Positions 4,744 through 58,257 are shown, counted from the first letter of the stretch. The stretch: 64,000 nucleotides of DNA from an uncultured Klebsiella sp. (GCA_964496695.1 CAZCBE010000004.1:32123-96122), one strand, 5' to 3'. The notes: generated by a model not told the origin, from the letters alone. Made by a program: numbers and translations.

Positions 4744-4883
4744 GTTCGGAGTCCCGCCTTCAGGCGGCGGAACATCCGATCGTCAGTGCTGCTACGCGCG
4801 AGTCGTCCGTTTTCATCAGTGCCCTTGTTGGGTTTCAGTGAACTCGCTTGAAGCATTCGCCTTTGAAACCAGTCCTTACTTCG

Positions 4884-6257
4884 ATGCCGAATGTGAACGC
4901 CAGCGCAGCCAACCCGCTCGCGGCGAACCACTTTTCCCGCCGCAGCTTCGTGCGCGGCGTCGGGGCATCGCTCTTCCCCTTGGCCGCCGGCTGGTCGCAC
5001 GCCGCGGGCATGGGGCCGCTCCGCACGGGCAAGGCCAAGTCGGTCATCATGATCTTCAACGGGGGCGCGCCCAGCCACCTGGACTTGTGGGACCCGAAGC
5101 CCGATGCCGCCGATGACATTCGCGGTCCGTTCCGGCCGATCAAGACGAACGTCACCGGCACACATATCTCGGAGCTGCTCCCGCGCATGGCCAAGCGGAT
5201 GGACAAGGTGGCGCTCATCCGCTCGGTCCATCACAAGCACAGCAGCCACAATGGCGGCATGCACTGGGCCACCGTGGGCCGGCCCTACGTGGTGGACAGC
5301 ACGCTAATCACGCCCAGCCGCACGGACATCCCGTGCTTCGGCACGCTCATCGGCTGGCTCGCGCGACGCGATGGCTACAGTGAAGGCGTGCCGCCCTACG
5401 TCATCACGCCCTTCCCGCACTGCGACAGCAAGGTTTACCTCACGCCCGGCCAGTTCGGCGGCTGCCTCGGCGCGCGCTTCGATCCCTACGTGCTGGATGA
5501 CGATCCGAACTCGGCCTCGTTCAAGGTGCGCAATCTCGGCCTCGACGAGAGCCTGACCCCCGTGCGCTTTCAGGAGCGCCTCGGCCTGCTGCAGGAACTC
5601 ACGGTCAACGCGCCGAAGATCGCTTCGACGAGCGTGGCCGAGATGGATGTCTTCAATCAGCAGGCGGCCTCGCTCCTCCGCTCCGGCAAGGCGGCGGATG
5701 CGTTCGATTTGAGCAAGGAGCCCGCCTCCGTGCGCGAGCGCTACGGACGGCACAGTTGGGGTCAGTCGCATCTCCTGGCACGCCGTCTCATTGAATCTGG
5801 CACGCGCTTTGTCTCCACGGTGAACGGTCCGAGCATTACGTGGGACACCCACAAAGACAACTTCAACACCTTGAAGAACCGCCTCGTTCCGCCCATGGAT
5901 CAGGCCTACGCCGCGTTGCTCGATGACCTGGAAGAGCGCGGCCTGCTGGACTCGACGCTCGTCATCTGGATGGGCGAGTTCGGGCGCACGCCCAAGATCA
6001 ACGCCGATGTCGGGCGTGATCACTGGCCCGGCTGCTACAGCGTCCTGCTGGCGGGCGGCGGCATCCGTGGCGGTCAAGTGGTGGGGGCCTCCGATGCCAT
6101 CGGGGCGTATCCAAAGGAGCGGCCCGTGAGCCCGGCAGACATCCACGCGACCGTATATGCCGCGCTGGGCTACGACGCGGGCAACATCCACTTCATGGCT
6201 TCGGATGGCCGCCCGATGCCGCTCTGCGAAGGCACGCCGATCAGCGAAGTGCTCTGA
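4884..6257 (+). CDS. DUF1501 domain protein (sulfatase-like fold) with Tat signal
   Basis: First ATG at 4884 gives MPNVNASAANPLAANHFSRRSFVRGVGASLFPLAAG (twin-arginine motif). The ORF is long, with conserved DUF1501-type blocks (GGAPSHLDLWDPKPDA, GEFGRTPKIN...RDHW). A second paralog lies at 35321. Confidence 0.85.
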   Translation: MPNVNASAANPLAANHFSRRSFVRGVGASLFPLAAGWSHAAGMGPLRTGKAKSVIMIFNGGAPSHLDLWDPKPDAADDIRGPFRPIKTNVTGTHISELLPRMAKRMDKVALIRSVHHKHSSHNGGMHWATVGRPYVVDSTLITPSRTDIPCFGTLIGWLARRDGYSEGVPPYVITPFPHCDSKVYLTPGQFGGCLGARFDPYVLDDDPNSASFKVRNLGLDESLTPVRFQERLGLLQELTVNAPKIASTSVAEMDVFNQQAASLLRSGKAADAFDLSKEPASVRERYGRHSWGQSHLLARRLIESGTRFVSTVNGPSITWDTHKDNFNTLKNRLVPPMDQAYAALLDDLEERGLLDSTLVIWMGEFGRTPKINADVGRDHWPGCYSVLLAGGGIRGGQVVGASDAIGAYPKERPVSPADIHATVYAALGYDAGNIHFMASDGRPMPLCEGTPISEVL

Positions 6258-6335
6258 GGCAGCAGGCGCGCGGCATTCATGCCGCTTCAAGTTGCTGCGC
6301 TCTTTGGTGTCCGATTGCACGGTGGCGTTTGAACG

Positions 6336-6785
6336 ATGAAGCGGCCTGAAGGCCGCGCTCCTCAACTCAATCGCCTCGCCCCACCCGCCTTCGCCATGAA
6401 ACCCGCCGCCAAGCCTCCGCCGGACTCCCCATTTCCCGCCATCTTCACCCGGCTGCGCGCCATCCTTGAGCCCTACGCCGCCCGGCTCACCGTCACAGCC
6501 AACGCGCCGGACCACTACTGCCTCGCCCTGGACTACAGCCCCAAGTTTAAGAAGGGGTTTCCCGTCGCCTGGGTGAAAATCAGCCGGGCCTACGTGAGCT
6601 ACCATTTCATGCCCGTTTATATGTTCCCGCAGCTCCGCGACGGCCTTTCGCCCAAGCTGCGCGCGCGGATGCAAGGGAAGTCCTGCTTCAACTTCAAGCA
6701 GCTCGACGAACCGCTCTTCGAGGAACTGGCCCGGCTCACCACCACCGGCCTCGCCACCGCGCGCAAATCCGGTGTGGCCGGCTGA
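6336..6785 (+). CDS. DUF1801 (YdhG-like) domain protein
   Basis: 149-aa ORF. The segment HYCLALDYSPKFKKGFPVAWVKISRAYVSYHFMPVYMFPQLRDGLSPKLRARMQGKSCFNFKQLDE resembles the DUF1801 fold family. The start could instead be the internal ATG at 6396. Confidence 0.6.
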   Translation: MKRPEGRAPQLNRLAPPAFAMKPAAKPPPDSPFPAIFTRLRAILEPYAARLTVTANAPDHYCLALDYSPKFKKGFPVAWVKISRAYVSYHFMPVYMFPQLRDGLSPKLRARMQGKSCFNFKQLDEPLFEELARLTTTGLATARKSGVAG

Positions 6786-7013
6786 CCCGGCTTCCGGCAG
6801 TCGAAGATTCAGCGGGTAGCCCATGCCACCCAGTTGCTTCGGATTAAATCCAGTTTGACACCCCCGCCCTCGCTCGCTAGAAATCCCACCATCAGCCAGA
6901 GGTCGGATGAGTGGGGAAAACCATCATTCAAGGTGTGCTCTGGTCCGCGACGCCGCCGGACCTGCGGCCCTTTCGTCTCCTGAATTCAGTGACCTCCCTG
7001 GCAGGGCCGACCT

Positions 7014-7292
7014 GTGGTCGGCCTCGTCTTCCATATCAACACCCTCCGCCTGCAACAGCAGCAAGCCACCATCAAGACCAACCGCGAACGCGAGGAAGTC
7101 CAGCCCGTCTTCACCGAAGCCCTGCTCGTCTGCCGGGACTTCGCTGAGATCACCGAATTCTTCTTCCGCAAAGACCTCGACGACGCCAGCCGCCGCCAAA
7201 AATGCGCACAATGGGGCGTCAACTACATCTTCGAGCCGAACGAACCCGGTGCGCCGCCGGCATCCAACCCGGCGACAGCGCCCAATACCTGA
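7014..7292 (+). CDS. hypothetical small protein (about 92 aa), non-ATG (GTG) start
   Basis: Open frame with very strong G/C bias at third codon positions (host-like coding signature), ending 32 bp before the AT-rich NTPase gene. No recognisable motif. The start codon is uncertain. Confidence 0.35.
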   Translation: MVGLVFHINTLRLQQQQATIKTNREREEVQPVFTEALLVCRDFAEITEFFFRKDLDDASRRQKCAQWGVNYIFEPNEPGAPPASNPATAPNT

Positions 7293-7324
7293 TTTCGGAA
7301 ACACCTTGAGCGCTTCAATATCTT

Positions 7325-8848
7325 ATGACTGAAAAGCCTCTATACGATAATTTACAGCACATTGATTTGGGCAACGGTGTGGCAGAGCACGATAATCTGT
7401 TACGAAAATGCCTTGTTGAGACTCAGCATTTTACCGACCTGCTGTTTGACCGCATTGATCTTGTGTTAGGAAGCAAGGGCGCTGGAAAATCTTCTCTCTT
7501 TAGAATATTTGGGGAAGTTCTGGAAGATACATTGTTCACTAGATGGAAGACGATAGCGGTGTCTGGAGTAGAGACTAAGGGTGATCCGATATTTAAGGCA
7601 TACGCTGCAAATTTTGAGAAGTTCTCAGAAAGCCAGTTCGAGGCGTTTTGGAAAGCATATTTGTTGGGCCTTGTCTATAACAAGATTTTCCATGATGAAC
7701 GAGCCGCTTCTGTATTCGCCAATTATCCAGAAGAACTCTCCAATTTCAGGAAACATTACGTAAGTCTTGGGTTAATCGATGTCGGTCGGCTATCTTCGCC
7801 GACGAAAGTTCTCAAGTTTGTTTGCGCCTTTACAATAGCTGCTATCGAAGGTGCAAAGGCGGCGTGGGACATGGAAAAGAACCAGCTTGTTTTTGGAGTG
7901 AATATCCGTGATAAGATAGACAAAGGGTATCAAGAGATCACCGTCCCTGATTTAGCCAACCTTGACACGGTCTTGTGCATCGACGCGCTGTCAGAACTTG
8001 TTCAAAAGAGTGGTTTTAAAATATGGATTCTTCTCGATCATCTTGACGTGGTTTTTAGAAGGCGTTCGCCCGAAGAAACTAAAGCCCTGCGAGCACTACT
8101 CAAGGTCTTATATGCCATGACCTCCGAACACCTTCGGTTGAAAATATTCCTGCGGGATGACATTCTGGATGCAATCAGCACTGATTCCATTGAACCTCTA
8201 GCGGGCGTCTCCCATATTACGGCTCGGTCTGGACCAAATCTAAAATGGACTTCCGATTCTTTATGCGTGATGATCATGAAAAGACTTGCCTCCGACTTCT
8301 GGCTCTCCACGAAGTATTCACTTGAAGCGGATAAGCTCGAAAGCGTTGATTATGCACGAGAAAGTTTTCAAAAGATCTTCGCCCTGAAATACGTGACCCA
8401 ACAGGCGTTTGATTGGATTTATTCGCTTCTCTCGGACGGACGCGGTGTCGTAACGCCACGCGATTTAATCGATTTGCTAAAAAAGGCCCTGCACATTCAA
8501 TCGCTTTGGCTTCAAAAGCACCCTGACAAGACAGAGTTTATGACTATTGTGGCAATCCAAGAAGCTCACAAGGAACTCTCTAAAAACAGGAAAGAAACCG
8601 TGCTTCAGACAGAGTTTTCCCACTTGAAGCATTGGATTGTGAAGTTGGAGAGAAACAAAGAACAGTATGGAAAGGATGAGCTTTCAAGCGTTTTCGGCGC
8701 GGATTGTGACAAGGCAATCTCCACACTGCAAGCGATAGGGGTGATACAGTTCGATCACAAAAAGGCCGCTTATCGTGTTGCCAAACTTTACGGACCTGGG
8801 CTGCAAGTCTATGCCACGCGAGCAAAGAGGCAGTCTAATGAAAGATAG
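7325..8848 (+). CDS. P-loop NTPase, KAP-family-like (Walker A GSKGAGKSS; Walker B-like ILLDHLDVVFRRRSPEE), horizontally acquired
   Basis: 507-aa ORF with ATG at 7325. Walker A is near residue 50. A long insert separates it from an hhhhDxLD motif followed by R..PEE..K.L..LLKVL. This matches the KAP P-loop pattern of a long Walker A-to-B spacer and DDLDR-type Walker B. AT content is much higher than the flanking DNA. Confidence 0.8.
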   Translation: MTEKPLYDNLQHIDLGNGVAEHDNLLRKCLVETQHFTDLLFDRIDLVLGSKGAGKSSLFRIFGEVLEDTLFTRWKTIAVSGVETKGDPIFKAYAANFEKFSESQFEAFWKAYLLGLVYNKIFHDERAASVFANYPEELSNFRKHYVSLGLIDVGRLSSPTKVLKFVCAFTIAAIEGAKAAWDMEKNQLVFGVNIRDKIDKGYQEITVPDLANLDTVLCIDALSELVQKSGFKIWILLDHLDVVFRRRSPEETKALRALLKVLYAMTSEHLRLKIFLRDDILDAISTDSIEPLAGVSHITARSGPNLKWTSDSLCVMIMKRLASDFWLSTKYSLEADKLESVDYARESFQKIFALKYVTQQAFDWIYSLLSDGRGVVTPRDLIDLLKKALHIQSLWLQKHPDKTEFMTIVAIQEAHKELSKNRKETVLQTEFSHLKHWIVKLERNKEQYGKDELSSVFGADCDKAISTLQAIGVIQFDHKKAAYRVAKLYGPGLQVYATRAKRQSNER

Positions 8849-50324: not shown

Positions 50325-50375
50325 CGGGGCAGGTTATCGCTTGATTTGACGCAAAGGCGCGAAGACGCAAAGCGG

Positions 50376-51596
50376 CTAACGGAGGAGTGAGGGCGGCGGC
50401 TGGGGACGGGCTTGCGGGTCCGCGCGGAGGGCGAGCACCACGCGGTCCAGCTCGGCGGAGAAGCTGGTGGAGTTTGGCTGCCAGCCTTTGAAGTCGGCCG
50501 CGAGCCGCTCGCACAACTGCTGCCGCTTGCCACTTTGGTATTGGTTGCTGAAGAGGTGCCCGTCCAAATCCAACGGGAGCAGCAGGTTTATCTTCTCGTT
50601 GCGCTTTTGCATGAGTTTGCGCTCCTCGTCGAAGACCGTAGCGATTTCGTTGTCCACCCACCAACTGGTCAGTGAGGGCTGTGAGGCGCAGAGCAGGAAT
50701 TTGTCATATTGGCGGATGCCCCGGTCCACTCCGTGGTAGATGTCATCGCCGGGCAGCAACTGCTTCTCATCCAGCCAGCAGCGGATGCCACGCGCCTGCA
50801 ACTGATCGTGAAGCCACCGCGCAAAAGGCTTGTCCACATGGCTGTGGCTGATGAAGCAAGAGTAGTAGGTAAAAGGGTTCGTGGTGAGCTTGTTCGCAAT
50901 CGCGTAGGTGATGTCGGTGATCTGCCCGTTGGACATACCCGGTTGGCAAAGTCTCGCTGCTTCGATTTGCCAGTCGGACCAGCCGCAACCGCGAAGGAAG
51001 GGTCCATGCAATATGCCAGACCGCTCGACGGTGCGAAAATCGAGGACGCTGGGACCGATGTGATTACATTGATCCAGACCTCGTGTCTCAGTTAAATCCG
51101 TGTTTCCAAACACAGTTTCACTCAATACGGCGTTGTTGATGATTGTCCCCCTGAGCACAGTATTTGTGAGGTTAGCCCGATGAAGTTTAGCATCCGTCAG
51201 ATCTGACCCGCTGAGGTTAGCGTTATAGCAGTCGGCCCCTCCGAGATTTGCCCCAGTGAGGATAGCCGCTTGGAGTTCCACAGACGTTAGTCGTGCACAA
51301 AGCAGATTCGTGCCTTTGAGGTTTGCACGACGAAGCGATGATGCGACAAAACTGGCATCCTCAAGGTTCGCACCTTCAAGGTTCACATCGTCCAGCGACA
51401 TCCAATTGAAATCTATACCCACTAGGTTCGCACCACGCAGAGCTGCTCCTCGCAAGTCAGGTTTACTGCCCAGGGATTTCCACGCGTTCCAAGCTTCTGT
51501 TCCCCATCGGATAATTTTCAGATGTTCCTCGTTGGCATGACTTTGTCCTGAGTTCGTTATGCAGTCCCAGATTGTCCAGTCGCAACCGCAGGCCAA
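50376..51596 (-). CDS. pentapeptide-repeat / TIR-domain fusion protein
   Basis: The N-terminal ~200 aa are consecutive pentapeptide repeats (LRGANLVGIDFNWMSLDDVNLEGANLEDASFVASSLRRANLKGTNLLCARL...ANLSGSDLTDAKLHRANLTNTVLRG). The C-terminus is a TIR domain (YYSCFISHSHVDKPFARWLHDQLQARGIRCWLDEKQLLPGDDIYHGVDRGIRQYDKFLLCASQPSLTSWWVDNEIATVFDEE). The gene has lower GC than the flanks. Start is TTG at 51596 (no in-frame ATG before the repeats). Confidence 0.85.
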   Translation of the reverse strand: MACGCDWTIWDCITNSGQSHANEEHLKIIRWGTEAWNAWKSLGSKPDLRGAALRGANLVGIDFNWMSLDDVNLEGANLEDASFVASSLRRANLKGTNLLCARLTSVELQAAILTGANLGGADCYNANLSGSDLTDAKLHRANLTNTVLRGTIINNAVLSETVFGNTDLTETRGLDQCNHIGPSVLDFRTVERSGILHGPFLRGCGWSDWQIEAARLCQPGMSNGQITDITYAIANKLTTNPFTYYSCFISHSHVDKPFARWLHDQLQARGIRCWLDEKQLLPGDDIYHGVDRGIRQYDKFLLCASQPSLTSWWVDNEIATVFDEERKLMQKRNEKINLLLPLDLDGHLFSNQYQSGKRQQLCERLAADFKGWQPNSTSFSAELDRVVLALRADPQARPQPPPSLLR

Positions 51597-51690
51597 GCTT
51601 GATGCAGCGAGATTACAAATCCTTCCGTCCCAGACGAGGAAGTTTTGGGCCTACCTTGCTGTTGTCCTTTGCGTCTTCGCGTCCTTCGTT

Positions 51691-51717
51691 AGAAAACGCT
51701 GCGGCCTCACCGCAGCG
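51691..51717 (-). terminator. intrinsic (rho-independent) terminator after the protease-fusion gene
   Basis: cgctgcgg-cctcac-cgcagcg hairpin (51697-51717, includes the stop codon). On the minus-strand RNA it is followed by UUUUCU (complement of agaaaa 51691-51696). Confidence 0.6.
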
Positions 51718-53998
51718 ACCGCAGCAACTGCTCCACCCGGTCCAGATCAATGCCGCGTGGCCGATTCTCCAGCAGCCAGAGCAGGTCGAGGCGACCCCCT
51801 TCTTGATCCTCGTTTTGCAGGCGCAGGAGCGCGCGACCGATGCGGTCGCCGGGAGACTCGGGGGACAGGGCGACAATCAGTTCCTGATAGCGGAGCATCG
51901 CGGCGTGGTCGCTGGTCTGGCGGGCGGCGGACAGGAGATTGCGCAACATGCGGACGATGATCGCGCGCTTGGTGGCAGGCTGGAGATCCTCGTCGGTGAA
52001 CTGCGTGGAACGTGCCGGCGGGAGAATCGCCCCGCCGTCGAACACATCAATGAGCTGGCGCTCACCCTTCGTCGGCGTGTGCAGCACCATGAAGTGCCCC
52101 GGCACCGGCGCGCCGGTCACAGTTTCCAAGCCGATGCGCCGGGCCAGTTCGAGGAACACGACCGAGAGCGTGATGGGGATGCCCTCGCGGTCATCGAGCA
52201 CTTCATTGATGTAGCTGTTGGCCCGGTTCCCGTAGTCGCTGCGGCTGCCGTGGAATCCGTTCTCCTCAAACAGGAATTTCTTCAGGGCCTTGAGCTTCGC
52301 CTCGTCATCCGGCATGGCGGCGAGCTGACAGGTGATGTCCCGGGCCATGTCGTCGAGCTGGCGGCGGTAGGCGCCGAGATCGAGTTCCTCGTTGTCCAGC
52401 TTGGCGAGCAGCAGCGCCGCGTGGAAGAGGTCAATCTTGATTTCCGGCTGGTCCAGTTCACGCAGGATGGCGGCTTCGACCTCGCGCCGATGGACCGTGC
52501 GGGCGAGCTTGCGAAGCTGGCCCACTTCCTTCTCCAGCCGGTCCGCGCGCGCGATGAGCACGGCGCGGCTGGCGGCGGCATTGGTCTGAAGCGAGGCGAC
52601 GAGCCGTTCATCGGGCGTTGTGGTGAGGGATTCGATCTTCTGCAGAATGTCCTGCTCTAGCTTGGCCGTGGATTGAAGCGACGGGATGGTCTGGGCGACC
52701 TGGAAGTTTTTGAACGAAGCCTTCGTGTCGCGGAACTTGGCCAGGCCGACTTTACCGGTGCGCAGCTCCTTGTCGTCCGACTCGATGGTGAGCTGGTCGT
52801 TCACGTAGCACAGCAAGCGGTCCTTCTCGACGCGCACCTTGATCGTGTTCCACTCCCCCGGACGATAGTGCGGTGAGGGCACGGTCTTGATGATCGCCCA
52901 GGAATAGACCGTTGGGCCGTCGAAGCGCGTGAGGCGGAGCTGTCCGGCAGTGGGATAGAAGCCGTAATGCAGGTCGCCGCCATCGGCGGAGAAGATCAGG
53001 CCCGCCGCACCGCCTTCGCTCTCCAGCTTCACGGTCACCGCGATTTCGTAAGGGACCGCCGGCACGTCGCGCTGATTCAGGCAGAGCGCCCGGCCACCGA
53101 AGCCCTTGCCGGTGCCTTCGACCGAGATGCGTCCGGCCTTCTGCGTCCAGCGTGCGCCCAGGAGCGGCTGCCACTCGCGCGGGTTCAGGTTGCCGATGGT
53201 GAGCCAGCGCGCGATGGGCACGGGGTTGGGTTTGCCGAGGAGGGGCTTGAGCGCGTTGATGGGCATCGCGAAGCCGAGGTTCTCAGTCAGCGCGGACTTG
53301 AGGGTGAGCACTCCATGAACTCGGCCTTGCATGTCCAGCAAGGGGCCGCCGCTGTTGCCTGGCTCGATGGGGATGGCAAGCTGGATCATCTCATCAGCGA
53401 TCAGGTCACCGGCCTTCACCTCGCGGCGGGCGGAGACAACGCCGGAGACGACGCTGAAGTCGAGGCCGCGCGGATTGCCCATGGCGACGATGGCCGCGCC
53501 TTGCTCCAGCGAGTCGGAGTCGCCGAGGGGCAGGGCAGGGAGGTCCTTGGCCTCGATGCGGATGAGCGCGAGATCCGAGCGGCGGTTCCAGGCGTAAACT
53601 TCTGTCACGTCAAATTTCCTGCCGTCCGCGAACTGCACGGCGATTGGGCGCGCCTCGCCGATGACGTGGAGCGAAGTGGCGATCAGGCCGTCCGGAGCAA
53701 CGACGAACCCCGAGCCGGTGCCTTCCACGGAGCCATCGCGTCCGGTGAAGGTGACGGTGACGAGGGAGGGTTTTACGCGCGCCGCGATTTCCTTGACCGT
53801 AAAGGCGGGTGCGTTGGTCGCCACGGGCGTGGACTTCGCGGCGGGTTTGCTGCTCTTGGGCTGCTTGGTGAGCAGTGCGCCAGGCTTGTCCTGGGCCAGC
53901 AGGGCGCAGCTCAGCGAGAGTGCGGCGGCCGCGACGCCCGGGAAGCGCAGCCAGCGAAGTGGACCGGTGGGGCGAGGTCGGCGTGAGCAGTCAGTCAC
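51707..53998 (-). CDS. secreted multidomain protein: S1C (HtrA-like) trypsin-fold serine protease + DUF1080 (LamG-like) + transglutaminase-like/SirB1-type C-terminal domain
   Basis: GTG start with signal peptide (LRWLRFPGVAAAALSLSCALLAQ). Protease triad contexts SLHVIGEA (His), RSDLALIRI (Asp), GNSGGPLLD (Ser). Middle block (WNTIKVRVEKDRLLCYVNDQ...KFRDTKASFKNFQV) matches the DUF1080 gene at 4036. C-terminal block (GIPITLSVVFLELARRIGLETVTGAPVPGHFMV) resembles the transglutaminase-like/SirB1 family. Confidence 0.75.
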   Translation of the reverse strand: MTDCSRRPRPTGPLRWLRFPGVAAAALSLSCALLAQDKPGALLTKQPKSSKPAAKSTPVATNAPAFTVKEIAARVKPSLVTVTFTGRDGSVEGTGSGFVVAPDGLIATSLHVIGEARPIAVQFADGRKFDVTEVYAWNRRSDLALIRIEAKDLPALPLGDSDSLEQGAAIVAMGNPRGLDFSVVSGVVSARREVKAGDLIADEMIQLAIPIEPGNSGGPLLDMQGRVHGVLTLKSALTENLGFAMPINALKPLLGKPNPVPIARWLTIGNLNPREWQPLLGARWTQKAGRISVEGTGKGFGGRALCLNQRDVPAVPYEIAVTVKLESEGGAAGLIFSADGGDLHYGFYPTAGQLRLTRFDGPTVYSWAIIKTVPSPHYRPGEWNTIKVRVEKDRLLCYVNDQLTIESDDKELRTGKVGLAKFRDTKASFKNFQVAQTIPSLQSTAKLEQDILQKIESLTTTPDERLVASLQTNAAASRAVLIARADRLEKEVGQLRKLARTVHRREVEAAILRELDQPEIKIDLFHAALLLAKLDNEELDLGAYRRQLDDMARDITCQLAAMPDDEAKLKALKKFLFEENGFHGSRSDYGNRANSYINEVLDDREGIPITLSVVFLELARRIGLETVTGAPVPGHFMVLHTPTKGERQLIDVFDGGAILPPARSTQFTDEDLQPATKRAIIVRMLRNLLSAARQTSDHAAMLRYQELIVALSPESPGDRIGRALLRLQNEDQEGGRLDLLWLLENRPRGIDLDRVEQLLRSLR

Positions 53999-54007
53999 AG
54001 TGCTTGG

Positions 54008-54355
54008 ATGGCCGGGAAGATTGAAAATTCAGCGGGCAGTCCATATCTTGCGGGCGTGGCCTCGACCATTGAGCTGCCGGACGTCGTCCGTGAGGAAGAA
54101 ACGGAGTCGAAGGAGAACCTTGACCCCGGGTTCCTCGTGATTTGCTGGGATGATCCGGTGAACCTGATGGACTACGTCACGCATGCCTTCCAGTCCGTCT
54201 TTGGCTGGAAGAAGGAGAAGGCGGAGTATCACATGCTGCAGGTGCATCATCAGGGCAAGAGCGTGCTCACGCGTGAGACGATGGAGCGGGCGGAGTGCTA
54301 CGTGCATGAGCTGCAGAAATACCAGCTCCACGCCACGATGGAGCCCGCCGAGTGA
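54008..54355 (+). CDS. clpS: ATP-dependent Clp protease adaptor ClpS
   Basis: Core ClpS motif ICWDDPVNLMDYVTHAFQSVFGW...AEYHMLQVHHQGKSVLTRETMERAECYVHELQ. The N-terminal extension is likely partly untranslated. Confidence 0.8.
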   Translation: MAGKIENSAGSPYLAGVASTIELPDVVREEETESKENLDPGFLVICWDDPVNLMDYVTHAFQSVFGWKKEKAEYHMLQVHHQGKSVLTRETMERAECYVHELQKYQLHATMEPAE

Positions 54356-54897
54356 AACTCGTCGAGGCCAAGGACGGGCTGTTCGTGTTCCACCTGTCGC
54401 GCCGCGAGCGGGCGATGCTGACGCATGTGCTGCGGTTGTTTCCGGTGGGCAGCGGGCCGGTGGCACCACTCTCCATTAGCTCGGAAGTGGGGGCCTTGGC
54501 CGAGCACGAGCAGGCGCTGGGAGAGGCTTTGGCCGAGCAGCGCGTGGAGCACAAGCGACTGGTGGATGCGTTCCTCGGGGAGGACGGGCGTTTCGCGGCG
54601 GACAAGCAAGGCTACCGGCTCCGGCTGCCGGGGACACAGCTCGATTGGCTGCTGCGCGTGCTGAACGAAGTGCGCGTGGGCCTGTGGATCAAGCTGGGCC
54701 GCCCCAAGGATCTCGGTGTGGTGGCTCTGTCGGGTGAAATCGAAGCGATCGTGGCGATGGAACTGTGCTCGTTTTTTCAGATGCGCTTTCTTGCTGCGCT
54801 TGAAGTGAAAGAGCTAGTCCCGCGACGCAGGCCAGTCAAAAAGAAGCGGAAGGTGGGAGGGGATGACTCAGCGCCACAAGGTCAGAAAGCATCCTAA
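54352..54897 (+). CDS. hypothetical protein (181 aa), translationally coupled to clpS (ATGA overlap)
   Basis: ATG overlaps the clpS stop. No recognisable motif. Lys/Arg-rich C-terminal tail. Confidence 0.5.
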   Translation: MKLVEAKDGLFVFHLSRRERAMLTHVLRLFPVGSGPVAPLSISSEVGALAEHEQALGEALAEQRVEHKRLVDAFLGEDGRFAADKQGYRLRLPGTQLDWLLRVLNEVRVGLWIKLGRPKDLGVVALSGEIEAIVAMELCSFFQMRFLAALEVKELVPRRRPVKKKRKVGGDDSAPQGQKAS

Positions 54898-55361: not shown

Positions 55362-55846
55362 GGGTGCGGCTTAGGAACTGAGTTGGTGGGAGCAGAGACG
55401 CGGAGAATCCCGTAACTGATGTTCGTGCCTTGATTCGGCCAGGTAACGTCAAGTCCTCCGTCCGCGCGGGGCGTGAACTGGAGGGACTTCATGAGTTCGA
55501 GGTCAGTGGCGCGAGGAATGAAGATGGCCTCAAATCCAGCCGCATTGGTAGCTGGCTGGAAGGGATGGCGCTGAAGAAAGTCGCCCAGTTCATGTCCGTT
55601 TGTCGGCCAGCGCGATTCGGTTCGGTAAAAGTAACTGGTGCTGGTGCCGATTCGCACGGGAGCCAGGACGTCTGCAATAACTGCCTCGACTGTCGGCGCA
55701 TTGGTTTCACCTTTGCGTTGGAAGAAAGGCGCCAAAACTTCCCAAGTGGACTTCGGTGGAGGCCGCCTTCCAGAAGAACAAGCCGCGCCTGCAACCACCA
55801 GCAGGGCGAACAAAAGCAGCAGGCAAGATCTGAAGTTAGAGGTCAT
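55358..55846 (-). CDS. hypothetical lipoprotein
   Basis: ATG at 55846 gives MTSNFRSCLLLLFALLVVAGAACSS (lipobox AGAAC). Stop overlaps the moaC start (ATGA). Overlaps the panB 3' end by 11 nt. The upstream extension of the track ORF is discarded. Confidence 0.45.
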   Translation of the reverse strand: MTSNFRSCLLLLFALLVVAGAACSSGRRPPPKSTWEVLAPFFQRKGETNAPTVEAVIADVLAPVRIGTSTSYFYRTESRWPTNGHELGDFLQRHPFQPATNAAGFEAIFIPRATDLELMKSLQFTPRADGGLDVTWPNQGTNISYGILRVSAPTNSVPKPHP

Positions 55847-56603
55847 TCGCCCACTCCTGCACCACCCGCCGCACGTCCTCGCCGACGCGGAGCCGGGGCT
55901 GCACAAACTTCGGCGTGAACCACGGGAACGCACCGAGCAGATCGGGCGTCACGAGGATTTGCCCGTCGCAGTCCGGGCCGGAGCCGATGCCGATGGTGGC
56001 GAAGGGAAACTGCGCGGTGATTTCCTTGGCGACCGGTGGCGTGACCAGTTCGAGCACGACAGCGAAAACGCCGGCTTCGGCGAGCGCGGTTGCGTCGTCG
56101 AGCAGCTTGGCGTGGCCGGCGTCGTCCTTGCCTTTGATGCGGTATTTGCCGCCTTCCTCCAGCACATGCTGCGGCAACATGCCGACATGGCCCATGAAGG
56201 GAATGCCCGCGGCGTGGATCGCACGAATCTGAGGGAGAATGTCGCGTCCGCCCTCAGCCTTCACGGCCTCCGCCCCTGCGGCGACGAGTCGCTGTGCGCT
56301 GGCAACTGCTTGTTCCAGGGTTTCGTAACTACGATAGGGCAGGTCGCCAATGAGGAGTGCGCGTGGCTTTGCTCGGGCGGCGGCGCGAACGTGATGCTCC
56401 ATCTCTGCGAGCGTGACGTGGGTGGTGTCCGGATAGCCGAGCACGACCATGCCGAGGGAATCGCCGACCAGGATGATGGGAATGCCCGCTTCGTCCAGCA
56501 GGCGGGTCATCGGGTAGTCGTAGGCGGTCAGCGAGGCGATGCGCTGGCCGGCGGCCTTCATGGCGCGAATGGTGTCCGGCGTGACTTTGGCGGTGGCGTC
56601 CAC
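55836..56603 (-). CDS. panB: 3-methyl-2-oxobutanoate hydroxymethyltransferase
   Basis: KVTPDTIRAMKAAGQRIASLTAYDYPMTRLLDEAGIPIILVGDSLGMVVLGYPDT...GIPFMGHVGMLPQ gives a full PanB match. Confidence 0.9.
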   Translation of the reverse strand: MDATAKVTPDTIRAMKAAGQRIASLTAYDYPMTRLLDEAGIPIILVGDSLGMVVLGYPDTTHVTLAEMEHHVRAAARAKPRALLIGDLPYRSYETLEQAVASAQRLVAAGAEAVKAEGGRDILPQIRAIHAAGIPFMGHVGMLPQHVLEEGGKYRIKGKDDAGHAKLLDDATALAEAGVFAVVLELVTPPVAKEITAQFPFATIGIGSGPDCDGQILVTPDLLGAFPWFTPKFVQPRLRVGEDVRRVVQEWANDL

Positions 56604-56778
56604 GGGCAGAGGATTCCGTCACCCACGCGAAGGGACAAGGCGAAACCAAGTGGCGGCAGGCGTCCCGCCCGGCGGAGGTGGCGTGCGATGCGGAAGGAAC
56701 GTCCGAGACTTCGCGGCATTCTTCCGGGCGGCAAGATGCCGCCCTCTACGGCAGGCAGGATGCCTGCCGCCACCGGGG

Positions 56779-58257
56779 TCACGGCAGTTCCGTCTTGCCC
56801 ATCAGGTAGCGGTCGCACTCGCGCGCAGCGCCGCGGCCTTCGTTGAAGGCCCACACCACGAGGCTCTGGCCCCGGCGGCAGTCGCCGGCGGCGAAGACGT
56901 TCGGGAGGCTGGTCTGGAACTTGCCGTGGTCGGCCTTCACGTTGGAACGCGGGTCGCGCTCGACGCCGATGGCGTCCAGCAGCGGCTGTTCCGGTCCGAG
57001 AAAGCCCATGGCCAGCAGGACGAGCTGCGCAGGAACCACGCGCTCCGTGCCGGGGACGTTCTTCGGGATGAACTGGTCCTTGTCGTTCTTGGTCCACTCG
57101 ATGTTCACGAGGTGGACGGCCTTGACGTTGCCCTGGCCATCGTCCTCGAATTTGGTGGCGGTGGTGAGGTAGATGCGCGGGTCATCGCCGAACTTCTCCT
57201 TCGCCTCTTCCTGGCCGTAGTCGAGCTTGTAGGTCTTGGGCCATTCGGGCCAGGGGTTGTCCTTGGCGCGGTCCAGCGGCGGCTTGGGCAGGATTTCCAC
57301 CTGCACGAGGCTCTTGCAGCCGTGGCGCATGGAGGTGCCCACGCAGTCGGTGCCGGTATCCCCACCGCCGATGACGATGACATCCTTGCCCGCCGCACTG
57401 ATGGGAGCGGATTTGCCATCCAGCAGCGCCTTGGTGTTGCTGTGCAGAAACTCCATGGCGAAGTGAACGCCCTTGAGCGCGCGGCCCTCGATGGGCAGGT
57501 CGCGCGGCTTGGTCGCGCCGGTGCAGATCACGACGGCGTCGAAGTCGTCCATGAGCTGCTTGGAGGTCACGTCCTTGCCGACCTCGCAGTTGCAGACGAA
57601 CTTAATGCCCTCGTCTTCCATCAGCTTGATGCGGCGCATCACGACCTCGTTCTTGTCGAGCTTCATGTTGGGGATGCCATACATGAGCAGGCCGCCGGGA
57701 CGGTCCGCACGCTCGAAGACGATCACGCGATGGCCGACCTTGTTGAGCTGGGCGGCGGCACTGAGGCCGGCGGGACCGGAGCCGACGACGGCGACCTTCT
57801 TGCCGGTGCGCTTCGCGGGCGGCTCGGGCTTGACCCAGCCGTTTTCCCAGCCGTGGTCAATGATGCTGCACTCGATGTTCTTGATGGTGACGGGCGGGGA
57901 GCTGATGCCGAGCACGCACGAACCCTCGCACGGGGCAGGGCAGACGCGGCCGGTGAACTCGGGGAAGTTGTTCGTCTTGTGCAGGCGTTCGAGCGCCTCC
58001 TGCCAGAGGCCGCGATAGACGAGGTCGTTCCACTCCGGGATGAGGTTGTTGATGGGGCAGCCGCTGGCCATGCCGCTGATGAGCTGGCCGGTGTGGCAAA
58101 AGGGCACGCCGCAATCCATGCAGCGCCCGCCCTGCTCGCGCAGTTTCGGCTCCGGCATGTGGTCGTGGAACTCGCGCCAGTCGGCGGTGCGCGCCAGTGG
58201 CGAGCGGTCAGCGGGGAGTTCGCGGTTGAATTCGAGGAATCCGGTGGGTTTGCCCAT
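56779..58257 (-). CDS. gltD: glutamate synthase (NADPH) small subunit
   Basis: N-terminal Fe-S cysteine cluster ([10 protein letters not shown]...[10 protein letters not shown]), FAD/NAD Rossmann motifs ([24 protein letters not shown]), and [14 protein letters not shown]. Confidence 0.9.

Follow-up and report, generated by a model that had tools for sequence, protein, structure and literature searches.

What does a gene do that joins pentapeptide repeats to a TIR domain and stands alone among housekeeping genes, and is the copy at hand still functional? Such a gene, called the PPR-TIR gene in the following (PPR, pentapeptide repeat), is found on the minus strand at 50376-51596 of a stretch of 64,000 nucleotides (nt) from an uncultured Klebsiella sp. 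(GCA_964496695.1, CAZCBE010000004.1:32123-96122), the whole of which we analysed and refer to as the window. Our preferred answer, to which we assign a probability of roughly 55%, has two parts that are taken jointly. By analogy with characterised TIR enzymes, PPR-TIR would be an oligomerisation-activated effector that consumes nicotinamide adenine dinucleotide (NAD+) and uses its variable repeat rod as sensor or regulator, and the region would be a horizontally acquired, self-contained single-gene cassette of ~1.3 kb, consisting of a leader and the gene between 20-nt inverted repeats. The effector reading is reasonable for the family and uncertain for this copy, which carries a frameshift near its start.

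TIR domains that cleave NAD+ (NADases) are central to bacterial, plant, and animal immunity, and the systems differ in how the TIR domain is switched on. As for pentapeptide repeats, we know of little that has been established about their roles beyond Qnr and MfpA. Several hundred clusters of proteins that combine a highly conserved catalytic TIR domain with a pentapeptide rod and lack a partner gene would extend the known trigger modules by a new type, and pentapeptide repeats would gain a defined function in such a family. Judged by its sequences, the family appears to be a large TIR NADase effector type with an uncharacterised sensor module that is absent from current defence catalogues, probably because nearly all of its members come from uncultured environmental phyla.

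The open reading frame (ORF) comprises 406 amino acids (aa) and runs from TTG, its earliest possible start, to TAG. Pfam recognised Pentapeptide (PF00805) with 105.6 bits (cut-off 20.2, E 8.6e-31) and, at residues 248-345, TIR_2 (PF13676) with 78.6 bits (cut-off 28, E 7.3e-22), so the architecture described in an earlier note on this DNA, a 406-aa ORF with pentapeptide repeats followed by a TIR domain, was borne out. The full-length AlphaFold2 model, based on 45 homologues, had a mean predicted local distance difference test score (pLDDT) of 85.8 and displayed an N-terminal helical cap, a beta-helix, a helical linker (residues ~176-240), and the TIR domain. The encoded protein is presumably cytoplasmic and leads from a capped PPR beta-helix via a family-specific helical linker to a TIR domain (Table 1). 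The consensus of the cap in the family is MANxEHLxILxQGVxxWNxWR. When public assemblies were searched for exact copies of the window protein, no record was found.

The residues of the TIR domain argue for catalysis. SWWVDNE aligned with D-W-T-N-Y-E of AbTir and with the corresponding stretches of PdTIR, BtTir, and a TIR-STING protein, both in phmmer comparisons and when a profile of 19 family sequences was compared with the PDB sequences. As had been proposed from the sequence, a Glu of this block (W312-E317) thus occupies the catalytic position, which is that of AbTir E208 and SARM1 E642; E317 would be this Glu, and W313 the alpha-C Trp that is linked to cyclisation of ADP-ribose (ADPR). The AbTir residues S140, R151, D167, G174, W204, and E208 correspond to S250, R260, D276, G283, W313, and E317 of the window protein, and the register is right, as counting back from E208 yields all published residue names (S140, S143, K146, R151, D167, G174-R178, K202, and W204). 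In the alignment of 45 family sequences, S250, D276, W313, and E317 were invariant, and G283 was at least 90% conserved. In AbTir, the active site is built between two TIR domains; the E208A exchange inactivates the enzyme, G174A leaves no or very low NADase activity, and S140A, R151A, D167A, and W204A are inhibitory, with W204A particularly lowering the production of 2'cADPR (bioRxiv 10.1101/2022.05.07.491051; PMC11374754). The alignment to AbTir therefore placed not only the catalytic Glu but also the other residues that are needed according to AbTir mutagenesis, which means that, at the level of aligned residues, the complete TIR NADase set is conserved in the window protein. Only the assignment of the BB loop had to be revised: the FISHS...D stretch that had been regarded as its start (F248-D255, FISHSH-D) is the beta-A strand/AA-loop motif, and the BB loop is formed by L280-Q296.

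Structure prediction led to the same enzymes. A TIR-only AlphaFold2 model (pLDDT 74.7) matched solved TIR domains, which have a flavodoxin-like fold, at a probability of 1.0. SPARTA TIR-APAZ was nearest in structure (template modelling score 0.55-0.62, 24-27% identity), and further fold matches were the AbTir-3AD filament, SARM1, Cat1, TIR-STING, MAL, and MyD88. As far as this model goes, the nearest solved structures are oligomerisation-activated NADase TIRs. In AbTir, SARM1, and SPARTA, NADase activity arises only when TIR domains assemble head-to-tail and two of them jointly form the active site. In analogy to these systems, PPR-TIR would be inactive as a monomer and would cleave NAD+ once its TIR domains assemble head-to-tail. 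The repeat rod, which varies in length, and the linker may hold the TIR domains apart until a ligand or partner binds; assembly would then result in NAD+ consumption and hence growth arrest or abortive infection. As the protein would act alone, NAD+ consumption would be the main output, and in view of the conserved Trp a cyclic ADPR product would be possible as well.

With the family profile, AbTir, PdTIR, and BtTir scored best by sequence among solved structures (E 2e-8 to 7e-6). The WxxxE motif with the catalytic Glu is common to them and PPR-TIR, as are the Gly of the BB loop and the Ser of beta-A, and these enzymes are likewise encoded by single genes with no obligatory partner. Their N-terminal part, however, is a coiled coil, whereas PPR-TIR has a 25-repeat beta-helix and a family-specific linker, and the TIR domains are only ~22-30% identical, with the activity of PPR-TIR being a prediction from sequence. 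SPARTA resembles PPR-TIR in its TIR structure and in the likely logic of a TIR domain that stays silent until a sensor module drives oligomerisation, but PPR-TIR has no APAZ domain or Argonaute partner, and the sensor modules are unrelated.

The pentapeptide register is unbroken over residues 46-170, giving 25 tandem repeats of the A(D/N)LXX type and ~125 aa. The repeats had correctly been described as uninterrupted, but the length of ~200 aa given for them was too high, as residues 171-243 form the conserved helical linker. The beta-helix was predicted with pLDDT values of 92-99, and Foldseek matched it to Np275/276, Qnr, MfpA, and HetL (probability 1.0). PPR-TIR has the right-handed quadrilateral beta-helix fold in common with Qnr, MfpA, and AlbG but differs from them in that it lacks the Qnr loops, has an only mildly acidic repeat domain, is fused to a TIR domain, and scores far below the NCBIfam cut-offs (Qnr 33 bits with a cut-off of 240, MfpA 29.7 with a cut-off of 360). 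None of the NCBIfam models attained its cut-off with PPR-TIR, and membership in Qnr, MfpA, HetL, or PipB was ruled out, as every score was far too low. The linker has the consensus CxHxGPSxxDxxT...FLRGCG.xDWxIE...TDIxY and is confined to the PPR-TIR family. It is specific to the PPR fusion, because longer proteins with other N-terminal modules match from the TIR domain onward only. Two linker variants occur in the family (alignment columns ~515-545, corresponding to window residues ~205-240): the long form DWxIExxKL...QxTDIxY, which is found in the window copy, and PExxIxYLPSL, which is ~20 residues shorter. The repeats may act as sensor or autoinhibitor. A search of the literature on pentapeptide repeats with a TIR, NADase, or anti-phage role yielded no paper describing or assaying a PPR-TIR fusion.

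The architecture is widespread. In a word-indexed search, at least 120 proteins were found to have the Pentapeptide and TIR_2 architecture of the window protein (38-66% identity over ~95% of the query), some of them labelled 'TIR domain-containing protein/pentapeptide repeat protein', and an exhaustive HMMER search with linker and TIR domain only gave 487 clusters (50% identity) at E <= 1e-30. With two strict peptide patterns, 279 loci were found in species-representative genomes, nearly all of which are metagenome-assembled genomes (MAGs). The hosts belong to the Acidobacteriota, Chloroflexota, Verrucomicrobiota, Planctomycetota, Calditrichota, Deferribacteres, Desulfobacterota, SAR324, and Alpha- and Gammaproteobacteria, and several genomes contain two copies. 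The mean pairwise identity is 0.69 for the TIR domain and 0.41 for the repeats, whose length lies between 87 and 237 aa. This TIR subtype (~55-58% identical) is also found behind other modules, namely AAA_16/STAND-TPR (in a protein of 1465 aa), receiver plus PPR, ParA/MinD-like, NYN, and N6/N4 DNA-methylase (P0196, P0176, P0189, P0242, and P0250), which points to one constant TIR effector with interchangeable front ends. This arrangement of a single TIR effector subtype with exchangeable N-terminal modules, together with occasional CHAT-TPR neighbours, recalls the conflict systems of Kaur, Burroughs, Iyer, and Aravind; the accessible parts of these papers name pentapeptide repeats and TIR domains as components and do not describe a PPR-linker-TIR fusion (eLife 2020/2021; PMC7159879, PMC8195603). 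In contrast to those systems, PPR-TIR has neither an NTPase nor an adaptor (EAD/Death-like) domain.

The second part of our reading, the cassette, rests on composition and on the borders of homology. The gene has a GC content of 0.559 (window 0.638) and a GC content at third codon positions (GC3) of 0.654, compared to 0.78-0.90 in eight neighbouring or large genes, in line with the lower GC content that had been noticed. At the DNA level, similarity to relatives was found at 51652-51509 (74-80%) and at 50999-50374 (80-82%), and the repeat region has diverged past recognition. The homology stops at the stop codon and at 51652, the outer end of a conserved 5' leader that moves with the gene between unrelated genomic contexts. 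The previously suggested promoter of its own fits this travelling leader of 115 nt. The leader differs from its relatives at 20-27% of sites, which is less than half of the synonymous rate (~50% of synonymous sites), and is therefore constrained. Other subclades also have common upstream sequences, as exemplified by two paralogues of one Calditrichia genome (85 nt, 92% identity). A structured RNA or riboswitch in the leader was rejected, as the minimum free energy z-score was -0.30 and the RNAalifold covariation term was positive, i.e. unfavourable, with three sequences, which are few; an Rfam scan of the leader gave sub-threshold chance matches only. The simplest reading is that the leader is promoter or untranslated-region sequence.

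Gene and leader are bracketed by an inverted repeat, the arms of which are complementary at 18 of 20 positions and lie just outside both homology boundaries. This repeat is non-random, since none of 2000 shuffles of the two spacers attained 18/20, and its 14-nt core GCGAAGACGCAAAG occurs nowhere in the window but in the two arms. The downstream arm overlaps a tandem repeat, GACGCAAAG(N7)GACGCAAAG, at 50348-50379. No target-site duplication was seen by eye at the inverted repeat, which may be the scar of an insertion, a site for protein binding, or a local repeat. The loci of the relatives do not contain it and have different palindromes resembling repetitive extragenic palindromic (REP) elements: G-rich REP-like palindromes (GGGAGAGGGTGGGGGTGAGGG and similar) flank the sister copies in the loci L001 (1379-1417) and L002 (2560-2680 and 3935-4049). 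Together, the low GC3, the end of homology at the boundaries of gene and leader, and the non-random flanking repeat argue for a foreign origin.

Signs of mobility were also found elsewhere in the family. An insertion sequence (IS) of the IS110 type adjoins one relative (P0002), an IS110-family transposase lies immediately downstream of the gene in L002, and several transposases surround P0008. In locus L007 (3915-13170), the PPR-TIR gene belongs to an integrase-bounded island directly after mreCD-PBP2-rodA that also encodes a CAP12-PCTIR-type TIR protein and a T5orf172/MUG113 protein, and an integrase-bounded island with a CAP12-PCTIR TIR and T5orf172 adjoins P0048. On a 353-kb contig of a Calditrichia MAG (L005, 7271-19429), ~12 kb comprise two PPR-TIR paralogues, a PPR-only gene, a CHAT-like protease, and an extracytoplasmic function (ECF) sigma factor, and a CHAT gene, a PPR-only gene, and a second PPR-TIR gene are found near P0012. 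All this characterises PPR-TIR as a mobile accessory gene that stands alone and has a patchy distribution.

A closer look at the start region raises the question of whether this copy is alive. In the family, the N-terminus is M-A-N-x-E-H-L, and the window protein has H20-A21-N22-E-E-H-L at this position. In the two closest relatives, whose proteins are 66% and 59% identical to the window protein, the locus reads AGGACAAAGTT ATG GCC AAT GAG GAA CAT CTG, whereas the window reads AGGACAAAGTC ATG -CC AAC GAG GAA CAT CTG, which corresponds to a 1-nt deletion directly after the ATG (ATGGCC to ATGCC). As one base is missing, the frame of the ATG (ATG CCA ACG AGG AAC ATC TGA, 51538-51518) ends after six codons, and the 406-aa ORF owes its existence to a TTG in the former leader (51596-51594) that happens to be in frame. 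This TTG is absent from the leaders of the relatives, which are non-coding there, and has no Shine-Dalgarno (SD)-like motif at a suitable distance. The ~20 N-terminal residues that result from it have no counterpart in 44 relatives and are predicted to be disordered (pLDDT 46-54). In the 118 relatives in which a start could be placed at the conserved position, this start was ATG in 111, GTG in six, and TTG in one, and 73 of them had an SD-like motif at -16 to -4. The TTG proposed in the earlier note is therefore the first possible start but not the native start of the family, and it is probably an ORF-calling artefact. Since this apparent start hides a start-proximal frameshift, an annotation or expression construct derived from the 406-aa ORF would be wrong.

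These data are the basis of the strongest competitor of our reading, a still tentative one, in which the deletion abolishes normal translation and the copy is dead or dying. Besides the conserved ATG and AGGA with an ATG frame of six codons and the poorly equipped TTG, it is favoured by a case of disruption elsewhere in the family: on the Skermanella rosea plasmid pSR-5 (NZ_CP086116.1; L169, locus 4853-8609), two IS256 transposase genes divide a homologue into fragments labelled 'pentapeptide repeat-containing protein' and 'TIR domain-containing protein', with another PPR gene and a recombinase nearby. The remainder of the gene, however, does not look dead. The 387 codons beyond the native start are intact, all invariant residues are kept, and just 3 of 93 highly conserved columns deviate, which equals the family median, with two of the three deviations being common to sister sequences. 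The ratio of nonsynonymous to synonymous substitution rates (Ka/Ks) relative to the relatives was ~0.2 for linker and TIR domain, which in terms of substitution patterns demonstrates strong purifying selection on the TIR domain. A miscall of GG as G would look no different. Apart from this site, the window is unfragmented, with ORFs of 1826 and 1584 aa, which argues against pervasive errors but not against a single one. As there is no decay elsewhere in the gene, the frameshift may stem from sequencing (GG read as G), reflect a very recent inactivation, or be rescued by the TTG. In this genome, the protein would either carry 19 additional, disordered residues, with translation beginning at the upstream TTG, or be absent. 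Programmed frameshifting at the start was ruled out by inspection, as ATGCCAACGAGGAACATCTGA contains no slippery heptamer.

The oligomerisation-activated effector can also be extended into a bolder proposal, which we consider rather doubtful: PPR-linker-TIR would be an unrecognised cross-phylum single-gene immune system in which the rod is a rigid, possibly nucleic-acid-like bait for an invader protein. Binding would release or template TIR assembly, the collapse of NAD+ would abort the infection, and the cassette would spread by itself with its private promoter or leader.

Several points weigh against our preferred reading. NADase activity, oligomerisation, and the trigger are inferred for the whole family, and the copy in the window possibly does nothing in view of its frameshift. 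A DNA-mimicking bait in the style of Qnr or MfpA is not specifically supported, because the repeat domain is only mildly acidic (net charge -4; family median -6). The conservation of the TIR domain across phyla (69%) is unusual compared to fast-evolving defence sensors. The module was found in no phage record and in a single one of 72,556 plasmids. The neighbours in the window are housekeeping genes, and no defence island surrounds the gene there. Finally, the scan of 144 immediately adjacent ORFs from 78 loci with Pfam and PADLOC gave no clear defence-island signal: pentapeptide proteins were found six times, DUF1015 four times, DDE transposases and integrases three times each, and UvrD-like helicases and TIR_2 proteins twice each, and the remaining ORFs were mostly housekeeping singletons with isolated CHAT and UvrD/GajB-like matches. 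The search for the architecture in other genomes and in defence islands that had been recommended thus found it in many genomes, with no clear association with defence islands. The PADLOC models matched PPR-TIR itself through their TIR parts only; in the case of PDC-S66, positions 139-232 of the 282-position profile aligned to residues 235-327, i.e. the TIR core, which is too little for a full-length match. Similarly, the TIR domain alone matches the TIR-SAVED and TIR-STING proteins of CBASS, and there is no SAVED, STING, or APAZ domain in the protein or its neighbours. It is homology of the TIR domain that makes a defence role plausible.

The genomic context also bears on the possibility that the TIR domain generates a signal, such as a cyclic ADPR isomer or another ADPR conjugate as known from ThsB and AbTir, for a receptor encoded elsewhere. 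The invariant W313 fits this view, as the alpha-C Trp position is the most informative one for cyclase activity across characterised TIR domains (bioRxiv 10.1101/2022.05.07.491051), and so do weak matches to ThsB-type models. Thoeris likewise has a TIR domain with catalytic Glu and Trp, but the ThsB_TIR Pfam model scored only 18.4 bits (cut-off 21.2), and a ThsA-like gene was found neither next to PPR-TIR in the window nor recurrently in 80 loci. No SIR2, SLOG, or Macro partner was present among 16 ORFs scanned at about 38.7-63.7 kb of the window. When 2396 flanking ORFs of the 80 loci were clustered all against all, no conserved partner emerged, as no cluster covered more than 10 loci; the top clusters comprised other PPR proteins, CHAT-TPR proteins (6 loci), generic PAS kinases, and genes that recur through lineage-specific synteny (DUF1015, pterin dehydratase). 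These findings agree with the single-protein module that had been envisaged. As a mobile single gene that needs an unlinked receptor would seldom work after transfer, we regard signal generation as unlikely.

No better placed is a role outside immunity, for example in regulated NAD+ turnover, in dormancy, or in an 'apoptosis-like' social function in environmentally complex bacteria. Such a role would account for the very high conservation of the TIR domain across phyla, the mostly housekeeping or unannotated contexts, the duplicate copies, and the abundance of the family in MAGs of Acidobacteriota, Chloroflexota, Planctomycetota, and Verrucomicrobiota, and the occasional CHAT-TPR and PPR neighbours fit the conflict and apoptosis repertoires in the accessible parts of PMC7159879 and PMC8195603. 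We nevertheless consider it improbable, as the patchy, mobile distribution with foreign codon usage and nearby IS elements or integrases is typical of accessory conflict genes and not of core physiology, and as the bacterial TIR NADases of known role (SPARTA, Cat1, TIR-STING, and AbTir) are immune effectors. A non-catalytic TIR domain that serves as scaffold or secreted effector, like the PipB2-type pentapeptide and Tcp-type TIR effectors of pathogens, is highly improbable, because weak NCBIfam similarity to PipB/PipB2 repeat regions and the existence of TIR adaptors (MAL and MyD88 among the fold matches) are outweighed by invariant catalytic Glu, Trp, Asp, and Ser residues, PipB and Qnr scores far below the cut-offs, free-living environmental hosts, and a conserved MANxEHL N-terminus with no evident secretion signal.

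Table 1. Positions of the features of the PPR-TIR locus, counted from the first letter of the window (AF2, AlphaFold2).
Feature	Position	Strand	Basis or remark
ORF as mechanically called	50376..51596	-	TTG to TAG; residues 1-19/20 most likely translated leader
N-terminal helical cap, residues 21-45	51462..51536	-	family alignment and AF2 model
Pentapeptide-repeat right-handed quadrilateral beta-helix, 25 repeats, residues 46-170	51087..51461	-	Pfam, register, AF2, Foldseek
Conserved helical linker, residues 171-243	50868..51086	-	family alignment and AF2 model
TIR domain, residues 244-392	50421..50867	-	Pfam TIR_2, PDB sequence/profile matches, TIR-only model
BB loop, residues 280-296 (L280-Q296), LLPGDDIYHGVDRGIRQ	50709..50759	-	pLDDT < 50; G283 = AbTir G174
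WxxxE motif W313-V-D-N-E317	50646..50660	-	aligned to AbTir W204...E208
Conserved C-terminal tail, residues 393-406	50379-50420	-	
Ancestral family ATG, now out of frame	51536..51538	-	DNA alignment with loci of the two closest relatives
SD-like AGGA	51546..51549	-	7 nt upstream of ancestral ATG, conserved in relatives
Conserved 5' leader, 115 nt	51539..51652	-	80% identical to L001 (47-161), 73% to L002 (2702-2813) over 113-115 nt
Downstream arm of 20-nt inverted repeat	50353..50372		starts 4 nt past the stop codon
Upstream arm of 20-nt inverted repeat	51667..51686		between terminator T-tract and leader start
Terminator-like hairpin and TTTTCT	51691..51717	-	end of upstream 763-aa gene

The wider surroundings of the gene in the window comprise a GT2 glycosyltransferase, a planctomycete PSD/PSCyt protein, a protease-transglutaminase-TPR fusion, ClpS, MoaC, histidine kinases, a ketoacyl synthase, and glutamate synthase, and a second TIR or PPR gene was not found in the 64 kb. 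Two ORFs near ClpS/MoaC on the plus strand (54352-54897, 181 aa; 55638-56846, 402 aa) had no Pfam match, and their reality is uncertain, as many long antisense ORFs are spurious at high GC content.

The upstream gene ends in the hairpin that had been described as an intrinsic terminator with a U-tract. The pattern is indeed present: a 9-bp stem with seven G-C pairs and a 3-nt loop (51717-51697) is followed by TTTTCT. Such patterns are, however, not enriched over shuffles (one found in 2 kb, 1.7 expected), and the position at the stop codon is the sole point in its favour, the TGA (51709-51707) lying inside the hairpin loop. This upstream gene (51707-53998, minus strand) encodes a 763-aa four-part fusion of a trypsin-like serine protease, a 3-keto-disaccharide-hydrolase-like domain, Transglut_core2, and TPR_9, and its protease part weakly matches the RT-Protease models of PADLOC.

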